In this document: positions 2,714 to 17,766 of the stretch, in pieces | How the letters are laid out: each line of letters opens with the position of its first letter | Position numbering within the stretch: the stretch's first letter is position 1 | Assembly (NCBI GenBank): GCA_963724365.1 | Contig: CAVRUR010000003.1 | Location: 120,528-144,527, forward strand | DNA length: 24,000 bases | Direction of reading: 5' to 3' | DNA from: an uncultured beta proteobacterium | GTDB taxonomy: Bacteria > Pseudomonadota > Gammaproteobacteria > Burkholderiales > Burkholderiaceae_F | The notes under the pieces: generated by a model | Databases searched by the model: none | The model's input: the letters and a program-made list of their open reading frames with translations, nothing else | Told to the model about the DNA's origin: nothing | Translations under genes and position numbers: made by a program

Positions 2714-5408
2714 CTAGCGATACGAGTAGGTCGCGTTCAGGTAGAACGCGCGGCCGAGCGGGCTGGCTGTCTGCGGATTGAAGCCGGCCTGGAACGCGGT
2801 GCTCTGCAGCGAGAATGGCGGTTCTTCGTCGAACAGGTTGCGCACGCCCAGCGCCAGTTGCCAACCGGCGAAGCCGGTGTAGCGGCCCTGCAGATCCCAG
2901 CTCGAGCTCGAGCCCACATGTCGCGTGCCGGAATCCGCATCCCGCAACGGCTCGGTGTAGCCGGCGGAGTAGACCTGCGCGAGGGTCACGCCCCAGGGGC
3001 CGCGGTTCCAGTCCAGCGTCAGCGTGCTGCGCCAGCGCGGGATCGCGTTGCCATAGGTCGCGTCACCGAGCCGTGACACATAGGTGACGCCGTCGATCTG
3101 CGTTTCCCATTGCCGCACGTAGGTGCCCTGCAGGCCGATGCGCACCTGGCCCCAGTCCTGCGGCGGGGCCAGCCAACTGGCGAAGACATCGACGCCGGAC
3201 GTCTGCGTCGTACCAAGGTTGAGCGGGGAGATATCGATCGCGACGATCGGACCGGGCAGGTTCGGGTAGACCGGATCGACCGGGCCGCGCGTGATGCGGT
3301 CGGGAAAGCGCTGGTAGTAGCGCATCAGATTTTCTTCCGTCAGCGGCTCGATGATGCCCTTCTGCTCGATCGCCCAGTAGTCGACCCCAAGCGAAAGACC
3401 GCGCACCGGCTCCCAGACGACGCCGAGGTTCCACTGCGTCGAGGTCTCGGGCTGCAGGTTCGGGTTGCCGCCGGAAAAGACTTCGACGAAGGCCAGGCAA
3501 TCGTCAACCAGTCCGGTCACGGGGCATCGGACGGGATCCTCGAAGATGGTGATGCCAGCAGACGCCGTCGGCTCGCTCAGCGTGTACAGCGGCGGCGCGC
3601 GGAAACCCTCTCCCCACGAGCCGCGCAGCAGCAGGGTCTGCAGCGGCTGCCAGCGCAGCGCGACCTTCGGGTTGGTGGTCGAGCCGAAGTCGCTGTATTC
3701 GTCGAAGCGCAGCGCGAGTTGGGCATCGAGTCCGCGCACGATCGGCACCGCGAGTTCCGCATAGAGCGAATAGACGCTGCGGCTGCCGCTGATGGCCTTC
3801 AGCTGATCGCCGAGCGGCGAATTGCCGGCCAGCACTTCAGGATCCCAGTCGTAGGACAGTCGCTCGCGTCGCGCCTCGGCGCCGAGCGCAAGCGCCAGCG
3901 GGCCTGCCGGCAGTTGTGCGATCTCGCGCGACGCAAACGCGTTGACGAGCGATGTCGTTCCGTCCGCGGTCTGTGGCGTGCCGCTGTAGGCGGTCGAGGC
4001 GAGCAGCGCGGACCCTTCCGGTCCCGAGGGTCCCCACGGATTGATCAGTCCGGTCGCTATCGCCGGGACGATCCGGTTCGCGTAGACGAAGCTGCCGCTG
4101 TAGGCGTTCTCCTGCTGGTTCCAGTTGTAGACGGCAGCGACGCTGTAGTCCCAGCCGGCGGCCCGACCCTCGGCGCCCAGCACATAGCGCTGCGTGTCGC
4201 TTGTGGTCGTATTTGTGCGCGCGCCGAGTTCGGTGGCCCGGAACGAGATCAACAGGCTGCCCGCGAGGCCGTTGGCTGCGGCGAAGTCGGTCGGGTAGTA
4301 CGGGCCGCCGGCCGGATAGCGCAACTGGCCGAACGAGGTCACCGGAGGGATCGCATTGGGCGCGATGGCAGACTCGAAGCCGATTGCGGCCGAGCAGCGC
4401 CTCGGCAAACAGGTCGAGGTCTGCGTTCAGTCGCCAGGTTCCGCGCACCAGCGCACTGGTGCGCTCGACCTCGGGCAGCAGGTCGATCGCCGGCGGCGTA
4501 GTCGTAGCCGCAGGCGAGATCGTTGTCGGGTGGGAATCGGATCGGAATTGCCGTCGGCGGCAGGCATCCGGCGGTCGCACGTCGGATTCAGGATGCGCCC
4601 GCGCGTGCGATCGAAGATGTTGGACGGGAAGGTGAACGGAGTGAGGATGTCGATGCCCTGGTCGGGCCGGTACGCGGTGCGCGCGAAGTCGCGATCGATC
4701 GCCCGCAGGGCCTGCTGCTTCTGGTAGGCCAGCGACGCGAAGACGTTGTAGCCGTCGCGCGTCGGATCGCCGTAGCCCGCCGTGATGTTCGACTTGCCCC
4801 TCGTTGCCGCCGCCGTGCTGGGTGGCAGTGAAGCCGCCGGCGACTTCGACGCCCTGGTAGTCCTTGCGCAGGATGAAGTTGATGACGCCGGCGATCGCGT
4901 CGGTGCCGTAGATGGCCGAGGCGCCATCCTTCAGCACTTCGACGCGCTCGATCGCCGCGAACGGGATCGAATTCAGGTCGACCGGACGCGCCGTCGAACG
5001 CGTAGTTGCCGAGACGCCGACCGTTGAGCAGCACGAGCGTCGATCCGCCGCCGAGACCGCGCAGGTTGGCGGACGACAATCCCGGGTTACCAAGCCGTTG
5101 CCGATCGTCTGCGAGATATTGAACGGATTGACGTTGGCCGGCACGCGCTCGAGCAGCTGTTCGACCGTGGTGACGCCGCTCCTCTCGATGTCCTCGCGCG
5201 TGAGCACCTGCACCGGCAGCGCCGACTCGACGTCGGTCTGCCGGATGTGCGAGCCGGTGACGACGACGCGCTCGAACGTCGTGGTCGGCGCCGCCTGCCC
5301 CTGCTCTTGCGCCTGCGCGGCGGCGGTCAGCATGAGCAGCGCCGCAAACGGGAACACGACTGCACCGCAGTCGCAAAAACGCCCACGCCACCGCACGAGC
5401 TGGAACAA
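2714..5408 (-). pseudogene. TonB-dependent outer-membrane receptor, at least 6 frameshifts as assembled
   Basis: The N-terminus in ORF 3837..5408 has a signal peptide ending AQA, then FERVVVTGSHI and plug-domain sequence. The plug continues in ORF 4588..5478 ([30 protein letters not shown]) and then back in the first frame ([37 protein letters not shown]). The barrel runs through ORF 4427..4927 and ORF 2714..4408. It ends with a typical C-terminal strand (GRAFYLNATYSYR). There is no N-terminal signalling (STN) extension. Confidence 0.85.
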
Positions 5409-5628
5409 GCGGCCCCCCGACCGATATTGCGGCCCCTCCGGCGGCTGTCTTTATTGCCGAAGGCACCCAAACCGTCAAGCGGGAAATTCACCGGCCGGAC
5501 AGCCGGCGGAGTGCAGCGCCGCGCCGCTCCAAGCAAGCTCGCGCCGCAGCCCGGAGGCTCCACGGAATCATCACGGCGCTCGGTTTTCCATGGAAAATGC
5601 GCACTGCTGGCGGAACCCGAGGGCGACG

Positions 5629-6183
5629 ATGAGCGACGTCACCGTCTTATTGCACCGCATCGCCGAGAACGACCGCGAGGCTCTCGACGCACTCTTTGAG
5701 TTGCTGTACGCCGACATCCACCGCATGGCGCGCGCACGGCTCGCCGAAAACGGCCCCTTGACGATGCTCGACACGACTTCGCTGGCGCACGAGGCCTACC
5801 TGCGGCTACACGGCGCCGGCCGCATCGACCTCGACTGCCGGGGCCGATTCATGGCCTACGTCTCGCAGGTCTTGCGCTCAGTCATCGTCGACTTCGCCCG
5901 CAAGCGCAACGCCGAGCGCCGCGGCGGCGGCCATGCAAACCTGACGCTCAACACCGAGATCGCCGGCTCGATCGGTAACCAGGACGAAGACATCATCCGC
6001 ATCAACGACGCCCTGGACGAGCTCGACAAGGTCGACCCGCGGCTGCGCAAGGTGGTCGAGATGCGCTATTTCGCCGGCCTGAGCGAGAAAGAGATCGCCG
6101 AAGCGCTCGACTTGAACGAACGCACCGTGCGGCGCGACTGGGAGCGCGCCCGGCTGCTGCTGTCGGTTTCGCTGAAACGCTGA
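5629..6183 (+). CDS. ECF sigma-70 family factor, PF07638 / TIGR02999-like (the ECF43-type group that pairs with Ser/Thr kinases)
   Basis: In-frame part of ORF 4912..6183. MSDVTVLLHRIAENDREALDALFELLYADIHRMARARLAENGPLTMLDTTSLAHEAYLRL matches the characteristic N-terminus of this family (M.DIT.LL....GD..A...L...VY.ELR..A...L......TL..TALV.EAYLRL). The C-terminal region 4 reads VVEMRYFAGLSEKEIAEALDLNERTVRRDWERARLLL. RBS GAGGG lies 5 nt upstream of the ATG at 5629. No anti-sigma gene is adjacent. Confidence 0.9.
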   Translation: MSDVTVLLHRIAENDREALDALFELLYADIHRMARARLAENGPLTMLDTTSLAHEAYLRLHGAGRIDLDCRGRFMAYVSQVLRSVIVDFARKRNAERRGGGHANLTLNTEIAGSIGNQDEDIIRINDALDELDKVDPRLRKVVEMRYFAGLSEKEIAEALDLNERTVRRDWERARLLLSVSLKR

Positions 6184-6190
6184 CACCTAC

Positions 6191-6217
6191 TGTCCGGTTT
6201 TCCAACAGAAATACGTC
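6191..6217 (+). promoter_or_regulatory. candidate ECF-type promoter P1 (TGTCCGGTTT-N13-CGTC) in the sigma-kinase intergenic gap
   Basis: TGTCCGGTTT at 6191-6200, a 13-nt spacer, then CGTC at 6214-6217. This is 8 nt after the sigma stop and about 32 nt before the kinase ATG. The same 10-mer, spacing and CGTC recur at 9260 and 9523. Confidence 0.6.
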
Positions 6218-6248
6218 TTTGCGGTGAGGGAGAGTTACGCCCACGCGC

Positions 6249-9215
6249 ATGATCACAAGTCGCGCACTGACCGCACAGGACTGGCACCGGCTTAATGATT
6301 TGCTGGCGGCGGCGCTCGAGCTTGAAGCCTCGAAGCGCGCGAGCTGGCTGGCCGCGCTGCCGGAGTCGGCGAGCGACCTGAGACCGCTGCTGGCCGAGCT
6401 GCTGACGAGTGTCGGTGCGACCGGTTTCGACGATACCAGGCAGACCCTGCAACCGGTTGTGCAGCTGGCCTCAGCTGCGATTTCTGCGATGCGTCGGGAG
6501 CAGGCCGGCGACCGCATCGGCCCGTGGCAGCTGGAGCGGCTGCTGGCTGAGGGTGGCATGGGGGCGGTGTGGGTGGCGCAGCGTGCCGACGGCGTGATGC
6601 AGCGGCGCGCGGCGCTCAAGCTGCCGCGCGCCGAGTGGGTCGATCATGGGTTAAGCCAGCGCCTGGCGCGCGAGCGCGCGATCCTCGCGCGCCTGCAGCA
6701 TCCGCATATCGCGGTGCTGTTCGATGCCGGGCTGGCCGATGGCGGCCGGCCGTACCTGGCGCTCGAGTACGTCGATGGCGTGCCGATCGATGCGTACTGC
6801 CAGGGCCGTGAGCTCAAGGACGTGCTGCGGCTGATGGTGCAGGTCGTGCGCGCCGTGGCCTACGCGCATGGCCAGCTCGTGATCCACCGCGATCTCAAAC
6901 CCGCCAACGTACTGGTGATGGCCGACGGTTCTCCGAAGCTGCTCGACTTCGGCATCTCCAAGCTGATCGAGGGTGACACCACGACCGCGGAGGCCACAGC
7001 GTTGACACGGCTGGCGGGACGTCCGATGACGCTCGCCTACGCCGCGCCCGAGCAGGTGCTGGCGCTGCCGATCACGGTGTCGGCGGATGTCTATGCGCTG
7101 GGGGTGATGCTGGCCGAGCTGCTCGCCGGTGCGCGGCTGTACCGATCGCAGGAGCCGCGTGCGCTGGAAGCCGAGATCCTCACCGGCGATCTGCGCGTGC
7201 CGAGCGAGATCGCCAGCGACAAGGTGCGTGCCCGCGCGCTCAAGGGCGATCTGGATGCGATCGTGGCCACGGCGCTCAAGCGCCAGCCGCACGAGCGCTA
7301 CGACAGTGCCGCCGCACTGGCCGACGATCTGGAGCGCTACCTCGACGGCGAGCCGGTGCGCGCCCGCCCCGACAGCCGCGCCTATCGGCTGAAGAAGTTC
7401 ATCGCCCGCAACACGCTGGCGGTGGGTGCGGCCAGCGCCATCGTGCTGGCGCTGGGCATCGGCCTGGGGCTCGCGCTGTGGCAGGGCAATGAAGCGCGCA
7501 CTCAGGCGCAGCGCGCCACCGCGCTCAACACCTTCGTGCTGGGCCTGATCCGCACCGCCGACCCCAACGCATCGGTTCAGACCAAGGCCGCCGACGTGGC
7601 CATGCTGCACTCCATCGAAGACCGCATCGACCACGACTTCAAGGGCTCGCCCGACCAGCTGCTGCAACTCAGAGTGACGGTCGGTGAAGCCTACAAAAAC
7701 CGTGGTGAGATGGTCGCGGCGCAGCGCGTCTTCCAGCGAGCGGTCGACGATGCAAGTTCCTACCTGCGCGCAGATGACCTGCGCCTGCTGACCGCGCAGG
7801 TTCGCGCAGCCGACGAGCGACTTATCGTCTCGACCGCGGCGGCCGGGCAGCTTGATCGTGCCATCGAGATCTTGCGCCCAAAGAGTCGCGACAACCTCGA
7901 GGCAGCCGAACTCCTGCTGGATGCGCTGCTGATCCGAAGCACACTGGTGAACGAATACGGCGTGCCAGCTTACGTCACACCGGAAGAGAACACCCGGACT
8001 GTCGACGAAATGGAACGCCTGGCGCTCGACCACTTTGGCCCGGGCAGCCGTCAGCATCTGCGTGCGGTCGGCGCAAAGTCAGGCCTGGTCAACCTGCGAA
8101 GCGGCCCCGAAGCCGCCTATCCGATCCTGGCTACGGCGATGGAGCAGGCGCTCTTGCGCAACGATGGGGTGATCGACAGCGTGGACTTTCTCAACGCCAG
8201 CGCCGTCCGGGCCGTCCTTGACTGCGCCAACGGCAAAGTCCCCCAAGGGCTCGACACGCTGTGGAGGCTCAACTCGGCGGTGCGCACGTCCCACGGCCCG
8301 ACCAGTTACCTGCTCGAAGCGATCCTGCAGGGCATCGCCGACTGTCTCGCCGCGGTCGACGACAAGACGGCGTTTGGCTGGGTGCAGGACGCCTACGACA
8401 TCGCGGCCGCCCGCGAGCGGCCGCCCTCGACCAACCTGCTGCATCGTGCAATTGCGGCGTGGGACTGGTCGACGGGCGCACGGGACGTCGAGGCCGCCGA
8501 ACGCTACTACCAGAAGGCGATCGAGAACGTACAGGCATTCCCCGAAGAGGCAATCCGCGACCGCCTGACGGCCGGCCTGCGCCTCGGTCGCGTTTGCCAG
8601 CTGGCGCAGCGCGGTGACGCGGCGGATGCCGCACGCGTAGCCGAGCCGCTGATCGCAGGCTTCAACGCCGACTACGCGAGGATCAACCGGCTGACGCCGA
8701 ATCAGGGAGCGATCTGGATCTGTTACAGCGACGCGCTGCGCCAGCTCGGCCGCTACGACGAGGCGATCAAGGCCGCGCAGACCTTTGCGGAACGGTGTCG
8801 CGCGATCCTGCGCTTTGCGCCGGGTGCACGCTGCGAGCACCGCGCGCTTTCGGCCAAGGCGGTTGTCCAGCTCGACGCGGGCCGGCTCGCGGAGGCGCGC
8901 GCGACGCTGGACGAGCGCATGAAGCTCGCTCCGAAGACGGAGGGCGATCCGCGCTTCCCTCTCGCCTTTGCACGCGTGATGATCGCGACCGGACGCGGCG
9001 CCGAAGCGATCGATGTGACGCGCGACAACTACGGCGGCTGGCTGTCGACGCAGCCAGCGAGTCCCTATACCGCCGAAGCGCTGTACTGGTTCGGCCGGGC
9101 CTACCAGGCCGCCGGCGACAAGCGCGGCGACTGGATGGTCCCGCAGGCCCGACGGGCCCTGGTGAAGTCGCCGGTCTCGTATCACAAGACACTGGCCGCC
9201 GGCATGGCGTTCTGA
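6249..9215 (+). CDS. membrane Hanks-type Ser/Thr protein kinase with a large extracytoplasmic helical (TPR-like) domain
   Basis: Intact 988-aa ORF. Kinase motifs are the Gly loop EGGMGAVW (aa 101-108), AALK (K124), HRDLKPAN (213-220), DFG (233-235) and APE (266-268). A single TM helix LAVGAASAIVLALGIGLGLALW spans about aa 390-411. About 575 aa of Ala/Leu/Arg-rich helical repeat sequence follows. The N-terminal ~90 aa (W.RLNDLL..AL.L....R..WL) is typical of kinases encoded next to PF07638 sigma factors. Confidence 0.9.
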   Translation: MITSRALTAQDWHRLNDLLAAALELEASKRASWLAALPESASDLRPLLAELLTSVGATGFDDTRQTLQPVVQLASAAISAMRREQAGDRIGPWQLERLLAEGGMGAVWVAQRADGVMQRRAALKLPRAEWVDHGLSQRLARERAILARLQHPHIAVLFDAGLADGGRPYLALEYVDGVPIDAYCQGRELKDVLRLMVQVVRAVAYAHGQLVIHRDLKPANVLVMADGSPKLLDFGISKLIEGDTTTAEATALTRLAGRPMTLAYAAPEQVLALPITVSADVYALGVMLAELLAGARLYRSQEPRALEAEILTGDLRVPSEIASDKVRARALKGDLDAIVATALKRQPHERYDSAAALADDLERYLDGEPVRARPDSRAYRLKKFIARNTLAVGAASAIVLALGIGLGLALWQGNEARTQAQRATALNTFVLGLIRTADPNASVQTKAADVAMLHSIEDRIDHDFKGSPDQLLQLRVTVGEAYKNRGEMVAAQRVFQRAVDDASSYLRADDLRLLTAQVRAADERLIVSTAAAGQLDRAIEILRPKSRDNLEAAELLLDALLIRSTLVNEYGVPAYVTPEENTRTVDEMERLALDHFGPGSRQHLRAVGAKSGLVNLRSGPEAAYPILATAMEQALLRNDGVIDSVDFLNASAVRAVLDCANGKVPQGLDTLWRLNSAVRTSHGPTSYLLEAILQGIADCLAAVDDKTAFGWVQDAYDIAAARERPPSTNLLHRAIAAWDWSTGARDVEAAERYYQKAIENVQAFPEEAIRDRLTAGLRLGRVCQLAQRGDAADAARVAEPLIAGFNADYARINRLTPNQGAIWICYSDALRQLGRYDEAIKAAQTFAERCRAILRFAPGARCEHRALSAKAVVQLDAGRLAEARATLDERMKLAPKTEGDPRFPLAFARVMIATGRGAEAIDVTRDNYGGWLSTQPASPYTAEALYWFGRAYQAAGDKRGDWMVPQARRALVKSPVSYHKTLAAGMAF

Positions 9216-9221
9216 CCGGTG

Positions 9222-9239
9222 GCCGGGCGAGAGCCCGGC
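9222..9239 (+). terminator. GC-rich hairpin just after the kinase stop (weak terminator or attenuator candidate)
   Basis: GCCGGGC-gaga-GCCCGGC forms a perfect 7-bp stem with a 4-nt loop. It is followed only by a poor U-tract (gcaccgaattct). Confidence 0.3.
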
Positions 9240-9259
9240 GCACCGAATTCTCCGGCCCA

Positions 9260-9286
9260 TGTCCGGTTTGGCGTCCTCCTTGCGTC
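9260..9286 (+). promoter_or_regulatory. candidate ECF-type promoter P2 (TGTCCGGTTT-N13-CGTC) for small ORF A
   Basis: TGTCCGGTTT at 9260-9269, a 13-nt spacer, then CGTC at 9283-9286. This lies about 50 nt upstream of the ATG at 9337. Confidence 0.6.
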
Positions 9287-9336
9287 CCTACCAGCAAGAG
9301 CCCACTACGCGGGCTTCAACCGAACGGAGGGACACC

Positions 9337-9504
9337 ATGAAGAACTCGATGATCAAGCAAGTGGCCGGATTGGCCGCCGCGGCGTGCACGACGCTGGTGA
9401 TCTTCTCGGCCGTCGCCGCCCTGGCCGACTCAGACCGCGCCGCGTTGCACCAGGCCAAAGTCGCACCGGCCACGGTCGTGGCGACTGCGTCCGTGGTCCG
9501 CTAG
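9337..9504 (+). CDS. small hypothetical protein A (55 aa), signal-peptide or TM-anchor-like
   Basis: Internal ATG of ORF 9259..9504, with RBS GGAGGG 5 nt upstream. Sequence: [55 protein letters not shown]. It has a basic N-region, a ~20-aa hydrophobic core, an ALA|D site like a signal peptidase I site, and a 25-aa tail. It is paralogous to ORF B immediately downstream. Confidence 0.6.
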
Positions 9505-9522
9505 GCAGAAGTTCCAGGCGAA

Positions 9523-9549
9523 TGTCCGGTTTCGCTTCCGAACCACGTC
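9523..9549 (+). promoter_or_regulatory. candidate ECF-type promoter P3 (TGTCCGGTTT-N13-CGTC) for small ORF B
   Basis: TGTCCGGTTT at 9523-9532, a 13-nt spacer, then CGTC at 9546-9549. This lies about 50 nt upstream of the ATG at 9600. The sequence downstream of CGTC (CGTCCCTAC..ACAAGAGCCC...GGGCT...CGAAC.GGAG) aligns with that of P2. Confidence 0.6.
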
Positions 9550-9599
9550 CCTACATACAAGAGCCCCCCGTCGGGCTCGCACGAACAGGAGAAGACCTC

Positions 9600-9773
9600 A
9601 TGACGAACTCTTACCTCAAGCACGCAGTGGCCCTGGGCGCAGCCGTCACGACGACTCTGATTCTCTTCAGCGGCGTGGTTGCGCTGGCAGATGATGACAA
9701 GGCCGCGCTGGTCGCCGCCAAATCGGTGCGCGGCACGCAGGTCGTGCAGGCGACGTCGGCGGCGCAGCGCTAG
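9600..9773 (+). CDS. small hypothetical protein B (57 aa), paralog of A
   Basis: Internal ATG of ORF 9219..9773, with RBS AGGAG 8 nt upstream. Sequence: [57 protein letters not shown]. The architecture matches A, and identity by eye is roughly 40-45%. The shared core is TTL..FS.V.ALAD.D(R/K)AAL..AK. Confidence 0.6.
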
Positions 9774-9790
9774 TCCAACGTCGCTCGAAA

Positions 9791-9826
9791 GCAAAACGGC
9801 CGCGCGTGCGGCCGTTTTGCTTTTCT
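9791..9826. terminator. bidirectional rho-independent terminator between small ORF B (+) and gcvP (-)
   Basis: GCAAAACGGCCGC-gcgt-GCGGCCGTTTTGC forms a perfect 13-bp stem. TTTTCT follows on the plus strand. The stem supplies an A/T run for the minus strand. Confidence 0.8.
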
Positions 9827-9835
9827 GGTGCAGCG

Positions 9836-12749
<2,914 letters not shown>

Positions 12750-17717: not shown

Positions 17718-17766
17718 GCACGCGACTCCATCGGCGAAACCGACATGGTGCGCGATCGGCGCGGCC

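Follow-up and report, generated by a model that had tools for sequence, protein, structure and literature searches.

A TGTCCGG-N16-CGTC motif as candidate promoter of a kinase-linked ECF sigma factor module in a beta proteobacterium

What reads a sequence motif that recurs three times beside the genes for an extracytoplasmic function (ECF) sigma factor and a protein kinase, and which genes does it control? The question was raised by a 24,000-nt stretch of DNA, here called the window, from an uncultured beta proteobacterium (GenBank assembly GCA_963724365.1, contig CAVRUR010000003.1, positions 120,528 to 144,527). In this window a 10-nt block, TGTCCGGTTT, is followed 13 nt later by CGTC upstream of the kinase gene and of each of two small open reading frames (ORFs A and B). 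An earlier note on the sequence had interpreted the three copies, designated P1, P2 and P3, as ECF-type promoters. From comparison with related loci, we consider it likely that all three are promoters read by RNA polymerase carrying the sigma factor that is encoded immediately upstream of the kinase gene.

The motif in the window and in related loci

The exact pattern TGTCCGGTTT-N13-CGTC was re-found at the three positions previously reported (starting at 6191, 9260 and 9523), always on the plus strand, and was not produced by any of 100 dinucleotide-preserving shuffles of the window. When up to two mismatches were allowed, no sites other than these three were detected in the window (shuffle mean of 0.23). 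The number of matches expected by chance, recomputed with the base composition of the loci used, was approximately 1.7e-4, so that the earlier estimate of about 2e-4 holds. CGTC ends 31 nt before the start codon at P1 (kinase ATG at 6249) and 50 nt before it at both P2 (ORF A ATG at 9337) and P3 (ORF B ATG at 9600), matching the 30-50 nt first described, and all three start codons had a Shine-Dalgarno-like GGAG/GAGG stretch. P1 begins 7 nt past the sigma stop codon. The three 13-nt spacers were wholly unlike one another. Downstream of CGTC, P2 and P3 have CGTCCCTAC..CAAGAGCCC in common, and the two ORFs that follow them are 50% identical, whereas P1 resembles P2 and P3 in the motif alone. P2 and P3 are duplicates and P1 is independent of them, as had been proposed.

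A scan of one genome per species provided 80 loci with homologues of the sigma factor (45-98% identity), most of them from Burkholderiales and some from Steroidobacteraceae and Acidobacteria; with the window these made up 81 sequences, in which individual loci are designated by L numbers. The motif was not absent from the orthologous loci, a possibility that the earlier note had raised; it or a near variant occupied the sigma-kinase intergenic region, immediately past the sigma stop codon, in approximately 34 of the 81 sequences. These included loci in which the sigma factor was only about 50% identical to that of the window, and isolates such as Ideonella lacteola (L036). The kinase gene was the commonest target of the motif in the other loci, followed by small hydrophobic ORFs. 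Placement in front of the sigma gene was far rarer than placement in front of the kinase gene, with a copy directly upstream of the sigma gene in three loci only (L009, L057 and L059); this distribution is consistent with the earlier suggestion that the kinase gene would be under positive feedback.

Among 203 copies of TGTCCGG in the loci, CGTC was present at a spacing of exactly 16 nt in 43 and CGT in 77. At the other spacings from 8 to 25 nt, at most three copies were followed by CGTC and at most nine by CGT. A weight matrix derived from the sites gave 129 matches of at least 12 bits in 1.76 Mb (both strands), compared to one in the reversed sequences. The consensus of the 96 strong sites was (G)ATGTCCGGTTT, nine variable bases, A-(A/T)-T-N, CGT and then C, A or T, with CGT invariant throughout. 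Most sites of at least 25 bits (49 of 58) were outside crude coding calls, against a baseline of 38%. The sites faced a gene whose start codon lay at a conserved distance, approximately 31 nt where the gene encoded a kinase and 50-53 nt where it was a small ORF. The rigid spacing, the orientation toward a gene at a conserved distance and the largely non-coding location bear out the ECF-type layout that had been proposed for P1 to P3.

Two weaker candidates in the window were rejected. The spacer of a TGTC/CGTC pair upstream of the sigma gene (TGTC at 5446, CGTC at 5473) was 4 nt too long and its score was below threshold; a site at 17745 on the minus strand, with 14.6 bits, was probably a chance match.

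When the loci were ordered by a tree of the sigma proteins, the variants of the motif tracked the sigma clades. The clade that includes the window had CGTC[C/T], Steroidobacteraceae had CGTAT, Acidobacteria had CGTTTA or CGTATA, and two other sigma clades were characterised by TGTCGGCTTT or TGTCGGGTT. This clade-wise co-variation is the best available evidence that the adjoining sigma factor would be the protein that reads the motif.

Which protein reads the motif

P1, P2 and P3 each consist of a -35 and a -10 element that are separated by a spacer of constant length, with CGT in the -10, and lie a short distance upstream of a gene, oriented toward it, at the sigma factor's own locus. As such they would belong to a known kind of element, the ECF promoter, and their shape would not surprise a specialist. 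Two other sigma factor groups have promoters of the same geometry. ECF41 promoters have the sequence TGTCACA-n16-CGTC, with mapped starts (Wecke et al. 2012, PMC3426412), which agrees with the form given in the earlier note. Their spacer geometry, -10 element and first four -35 bases are equal to those of the window motif, whereas the complete -35 is TGTCACA in one and TGTCCGG in the other. ECF41 sigma factors also have a fused SnoaL-like C-terminal domain, in contrast to the 184-residue, extension-free sigma factor of the window, and they control carboxymuconolactone decarboxylase, oxidoreductase or epimerase genes rather than a kinase gene and small ORFs. The window therefore lacks the -35, the sigma extension and the targets of an ECF41 system.

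The second group is ECF42. For RpoE10 of S. meliloti, ECF42 promoters with mapped transcription starts have the form TGTCGG[A/C]-N16-CGTC (PMC6180224), in which, as in the window, the -35 begins with TGTC and its 7-mer is separated by 16 nt from a CGTC -10. Some kinase-linked loci (L017, L021, L022 and L053) use TGTCGGCTTT. ECF42 sigma factors differ in that they have a long C-terminal regulatory extension and are encoded beside YCII/DGPF genes, whereas the partner of the short window sigma factor is a kinase. Neither a sigma extension nor a YCII gene was found in the window, and the promoters are similar, not identical.

A scan of metagenomes for ATGTCCGGTTT-N13-CGTC gave matches in at least 120 stretches of DNA. 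Among the matches listed, approximately 15 of about 125 sites were within sigma/kinase/small-ORF modules (comparable small ORFs were present in L134, L139, L173 and L186), approximately 14 were upstream of carboxymuconolactone-decarboxylase (CMD) or YCII genes, and the remainder were on short contigs or were likely to be chance matches. In L170 (9378-12000), L101 (7995-9400) and L092 (1894-3200) the motif is present upstream of CMD and YCII genes in exactly its window form, and these sites have in common a distinctive spacer with TTTCCCATT at its end before CGTC. In L170 these genes adjoin the gene for a 443-residue sigma factor that is extended at its C-terminus by DUF6596, as in the ECF42 layout, and L092 contains an ORF with DUF6596. 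The window motif is one more member of the TGTC-N16-CGTC promoter class and is not specific to the kinase-linked group.

Several observations weigh against recognition of P1 to P3 by the adjoining sigma factor in the manner proposed. Around half of the related loci do not have the motif between the sigma and kinase genes, and the Steroidobacter loci L024-L032 do not have a motif site at all. The window sigma factor retains an acidic residue, D48, in region 2.2, so that strict dependence on phosphorylation is uncertain. The same core motif serves ECF42-type loci with CMD and YCII genes and a DUF6596-extended sigma factor, and another sigma factor of the same genome could for that reason read P1 to P3. 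Several genomes contain at least two paralogous sigma-kinase modules with nearly identical motifs (L001 and L007 are from one metagenome-assembled genome; L003-L005 are tandem), and the pairing of sigma factors and promoters may not be one to one.

The last two of these observations, together with the published ECF42 consensus, are also what favours a different assignment, in which P1 to P3 are genuine ECF-type promoters that are read mainly by another sigma factor, either a paralogous kinase-linked one or an ECF42-type one encoded elsewhere in the genome, as part of a cascade or through cross-talk. We regard this as unlikely, since the motif is tightly placed beside kinase-linked sigma genes, its -35 and -10 variants shift together with the clade of the adjoining sigma factor, and there is no ECF42-type gene in the window. 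That the motif is the operator of a DNA-binding repressor or activator is considerably less probable still; all that speaks for it is the conservation of the sequence upstream of genes, and none of the analyses favoured it in particular. The halves of the motif are unlike each other and lack dyad symmetry, its 16-nt spacer is rigid and not conserved in sequence, it is strictly oriented toward the gene, its CGTC half is typical of ECF -10 elements, and the loci have no other conserved regulator gene. The duplication that gave rise to P2 and P3 might suggest that the motif has no function and that its three copies arose by chance or are left over from local duplication. Against this, P1 is independent of that duplication, few matches are expected by chance, and the same positions are conserved in dozens of genomes despite diverged spacers and flanks. 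The weight-matrix result (129 matches versus one) and the count of N16 spacings effectively refute this explanation, to which we assign almost no probability.

Recognition by the adjoining sigma factor is the reading that we prefer, and on the sequence comparisons made here the interpretation given in the earlier note is supported. Its further claim, that the motif would define the recognition sequence of a poorly characterised ECF group, stands in part: placement and variants of the motif follow the adjoining sigma factor, but the group is partly characterised (ECF43-type) and the motif is not restricted to it.

The sigma factor, the kinase and the small ORFs

The sigma factor matched the Pfam model PF07638 (1.5e-40, residues 1-180 covered) and the NCBIfam model TIGR02999 (164 bits, cut-off of 126), and consists of regions 2 and 4 only. 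Together with the Ser/Thr kinase next door and the apparent lack of a co-encoded anti-sigma factor, these matches fit an ECF43-type sigma factor, an assignment made with the two family models. None of the neighbouring ORFs matched an anti-sigma family in Pfam or NCBIfam, and the small ORFs did not match any family at all. The coordinates of the module are given in Table 1.

Table 1. Features of the sigma factor-kinase module in the window (PWM, position weight matrix; aa, amino acids)
Feature	Position	Strand	Basis or details
ECF sigma factor gene, 184 aa, kinase-linked PF07638/TIGR02999 type	5629-6183	+	Pfam, NCBIfam
P1, predicted sigma-dependent kinase promoter	6191-6217	+	-35 TGTCCGGTTT 6191-6200, -10 CGTC 6214-6217; PWM 28.7 bits
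Hanks-type Ser/Thr kinase, 988 aa, membrane protein	6249-9215	+	Pfam Pkinase 4.2e-36; hydropathy
P2, predicted promoter of small ORF A	9260-9286	+	-35 9260-9269, -10 9283-9286; PWM 30.3 bits
Hairpin near predicted 5' end of ORF A transcript	9298-9316	+	GAGCCC-loop-GGGCTT; RNA fold
Small ORF A, 55 aa	9337-9504	+	no Pfam/NCBIfam match
P3, predicted promoter of small ORF B	9523-9549	+	-35 9523-9532, -10 9546-9549; PWM 28.6 bits
Hairpin near predicted 5' end of ORF B transcript	9561-9578	+	GAGCCC-loop-GGGCTC; RNA fold
Small ORF B, 57 aa, paralogue of ORF A	9600-9773	+	no Pfam/NCBIfam match
Strong hairpin, 17 bp, A-tract on one side and U-tract on the other	9787-9824		fold -34.1 kcal/mol, z = -4.5

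The sigma stop codon and the start of the kinase gene are 65 nt apart. The kinase itself has an N-terminal segment of approximately 90 residues, a kinase domain (94-358), one membrane span (approximately 390-412) and a 575-residue periplasmic part with tetratricopeptide (TPR)-like repeats, for which the Pfam TPR_12 match was below its cut-off. The first 90 or so residues (window 6249-6520) were strongly conserved over all clades in the loci, with the pattern DW.RL..LL..AL.L....R..WL..L followed by L.P.L..LL, and did not match a Pfam family; this segment might be a docking part for the sigma factor.

Two sigma factors of this type have been studied, EcfP in Vibrio parahaemolyticus and EcfK in Xanthomonas citri; both are activated when the partner kinase phosphorylates a threonine in region 2.2 that stands in for the usual acidic DAED motif (PMC8999054; PMC13147305). 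The window module resembles the EcfP/PknT and EcfK/PknS systems (group ECF43) in that its sigma factor matches the same models and adjoins a membrane Hanks-type kinase with an N-terminal extension and a large extracytoplasmic domain, with no recognisable anti-sigma factor at the locus. The architecture of the window kinase fits the published description of PknS (PMC13147305). Region 2.2 of the window sigma factor reads D48-T49-T50-S51, so that T50 is at the phospho-acceptor position and two of the acidic residues are lost, while the first aspartate is retained; one acidic residue is also retained in EcfK (PMC13147305). The corresponding sequences differ, being DTTS in the window, STTA in EcfP and QATE in EcfK, and so do the targets, which are polymyxin-resistance or type VI secretion genes for EcfP and EcfK. 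EcfK and EcfP were not reached by the protein search, in which the best 120 matches listed were all close relatives. Neither a promoter consensus for ECF43, EcfP or EcfK nor target promoter sequences of EcfP or EcfK were found in the literature searched, and a consensus may be published elsewhere; a text search of the same literature for TGTCCGG returned primer noise only.

From these comparisons we infer the following course of events. The sigma factor would be produced at a basal level, probably jointly with the kinase, and would be inactive until the kinase phosphorylates T50. The sigma gene has no motif copy of its own, the weight-matrix scan having detected no site upstream of it. A sigma-70 consensus scan of 5300-9900 did not detect a housekeeping promoter for it, and an Rfam scan of the same region gave nothing above threshold. 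Since no terminator separates the sigma and kinase genes, the two are probably co-expressed. A periplasmic signal would activate the membrane kinase, which would in turn phosphorylate the sigma factor, and the active holoenzyme would initiate transcription a few bases past each CGTC. Initiation at P1 would yield more kinase and hence positive feedback, and initiation at P2 and P3 would switch on two small exported or membrane proteins.

In both small ORFs a basic N-terminus is followed by about 20 hydrophobic residues with ALA at their end and then by an acidic tail, which in ORF A comprises approximately 25 residues. ORF B had 23 homologues in the protein collection, each of them unnamed or labelled hypothetical. 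Differences between ORF A orthologues were biased to the third codon position, and ORF B differed from its L002 orthologue by 17 synonymous and 10 non-synonymous codons; this excess of third-position changes makes it probable that both are genuine genes. A profile of the window small ORFs found members in ten close loci and in the distant loci L055, L060 and L075, every one of which was preceded by the motif; in these distant loci the small ORF is upstream of the sigma gene. Sites homologous to P2 precede homologous small ORFs in L001, L002, L006, L009, L010 and L014. The small hydrophobic ORF was the most conserved target of the motif apart from the kinase, and its position around the sigma gene varied in distant clades. 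Further targets encode exported proteins, namely PEP-CTERM proteins, di-haem oxidoreductases, a CsgG-like lipoprotein and a beta-helix protein.

Feedback on a sensor kinase by a small induced membrane protein is known from MgrB and PhoQ. The window is analogous to that system in that a signalling system would induce a small membrane or exported protein encoded with or near its sensor kinase; the small ORFs differ in having no sequence relationship to MgrB, and any action of theirs on the kinase would be hypothetical. TPR domains commonly bind peptides. As a speculative extension, which we think improbable on balance, the small ORFs and their counterparts in other clades might encode exported or membrane-anchored peptides that the sigma factor induces and that in turn influence the kinase through its periplasmic TPR domain, which evolves fast. 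With the induction of the kinase itself, this would make sigma factor, kinase and peptide a closed circuit of three parts. Compared to L001, L002, L010 and L014, the cytoplasmic half of the window kinase was 75-90% identical and the periplasmic half 47-62%. The periplasmic half was nearest to that of L002, whose small ORFs are likewise of types A and B, and in L014 the sigma factor is 98% identical to that of the window, yet the small-ORF type differs; this comparison of kinase halves with small-ORF types, as a sign of co-inheritance, is confounded by frameshifted assemblies and physical linkage.

The leader hairpins of ORFs A and B (Table 1) sit just past a conserved AAGAG. Equivalents were found in L001, L002, L006, L009, L010, L014, L055, L060 and L075, with stems that vary in sequence among loci and maintain their pairing; the hairpin may act as a 5' stem-loop that stabilises the mRNA, or it may have a regulatory role. 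The strong hairpin between ORF B and the convergent gcvP gene was missed by a simple terminator scan and is likely to be a bidirectional terminator for the module and gcvP.

A TonB-dependent receptor gene (2714-5408, minus strand) is broken across frames, with the plug in one ORF and the barrel in another, and the glycine dehydrogenase gene gcvP (9836-12475, minus strand) is broken into at least three ORFs, which suggests either pseudogenes or an assembly rich in indels. All ORFs of the module (sigma, kinase and small ORFs) are intact.

Other arrangements of the module were observed among the related loci. In L024, L026 and L028-L032 (Steroidobacter and relatives) the sigma and kinase genes abut, stop codon to start codon, and there is no motif site anywhere in the locus; such loci either have a differing promoter or have their targets elsewhere. 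Tandem sigma-kinase modules are present in L003, L004, L005, L009 and L014, in which a kinase gene with its own motif at approximately 2826 is followed by the sigma gene at 6001; L014 has a second kinase in the tandem module, and in L004 the sigma gene is immediately followed by an IS3-like transposase reading frame. A weak motif-like site, TTTCCGGATC..TCGTTTA (14-17 bits), occurs within the sigma coding sequence in L035 (6154), L070 (1828) and L077 (848), and may be an internal promoter or merely conserved coding sequence.

Consequences for the kinase-linked sigma family

More than 7,600 relatives of the window sigma factor were found by search. To our knowledge, sigma factors activated by Ser/Thr phosphorylation are widespread and only two members have been studied. 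In the public ECF classification, promoters were predicted from the regions upstream of autoregulated sigma genes (PMC7826278). Because P1 lies downstream of the sigma gene and before the kinase gene, such a procedure would tend to miss promoters of the type described here.

The kinase-linked, ECF41 and ECF42 groups have one promoter geometry in common, which raises the question of cross-talk between them. The consensus (G)ATGTCCGGTTT-N13-CGT[C/A/T] would make the regulons of a large and little-studied sigma family predictable from sequence. It suggests that the kinase, and not the sigma factor, is the component under positive feedback, and it suggests that small exported proteins recur among the targets.

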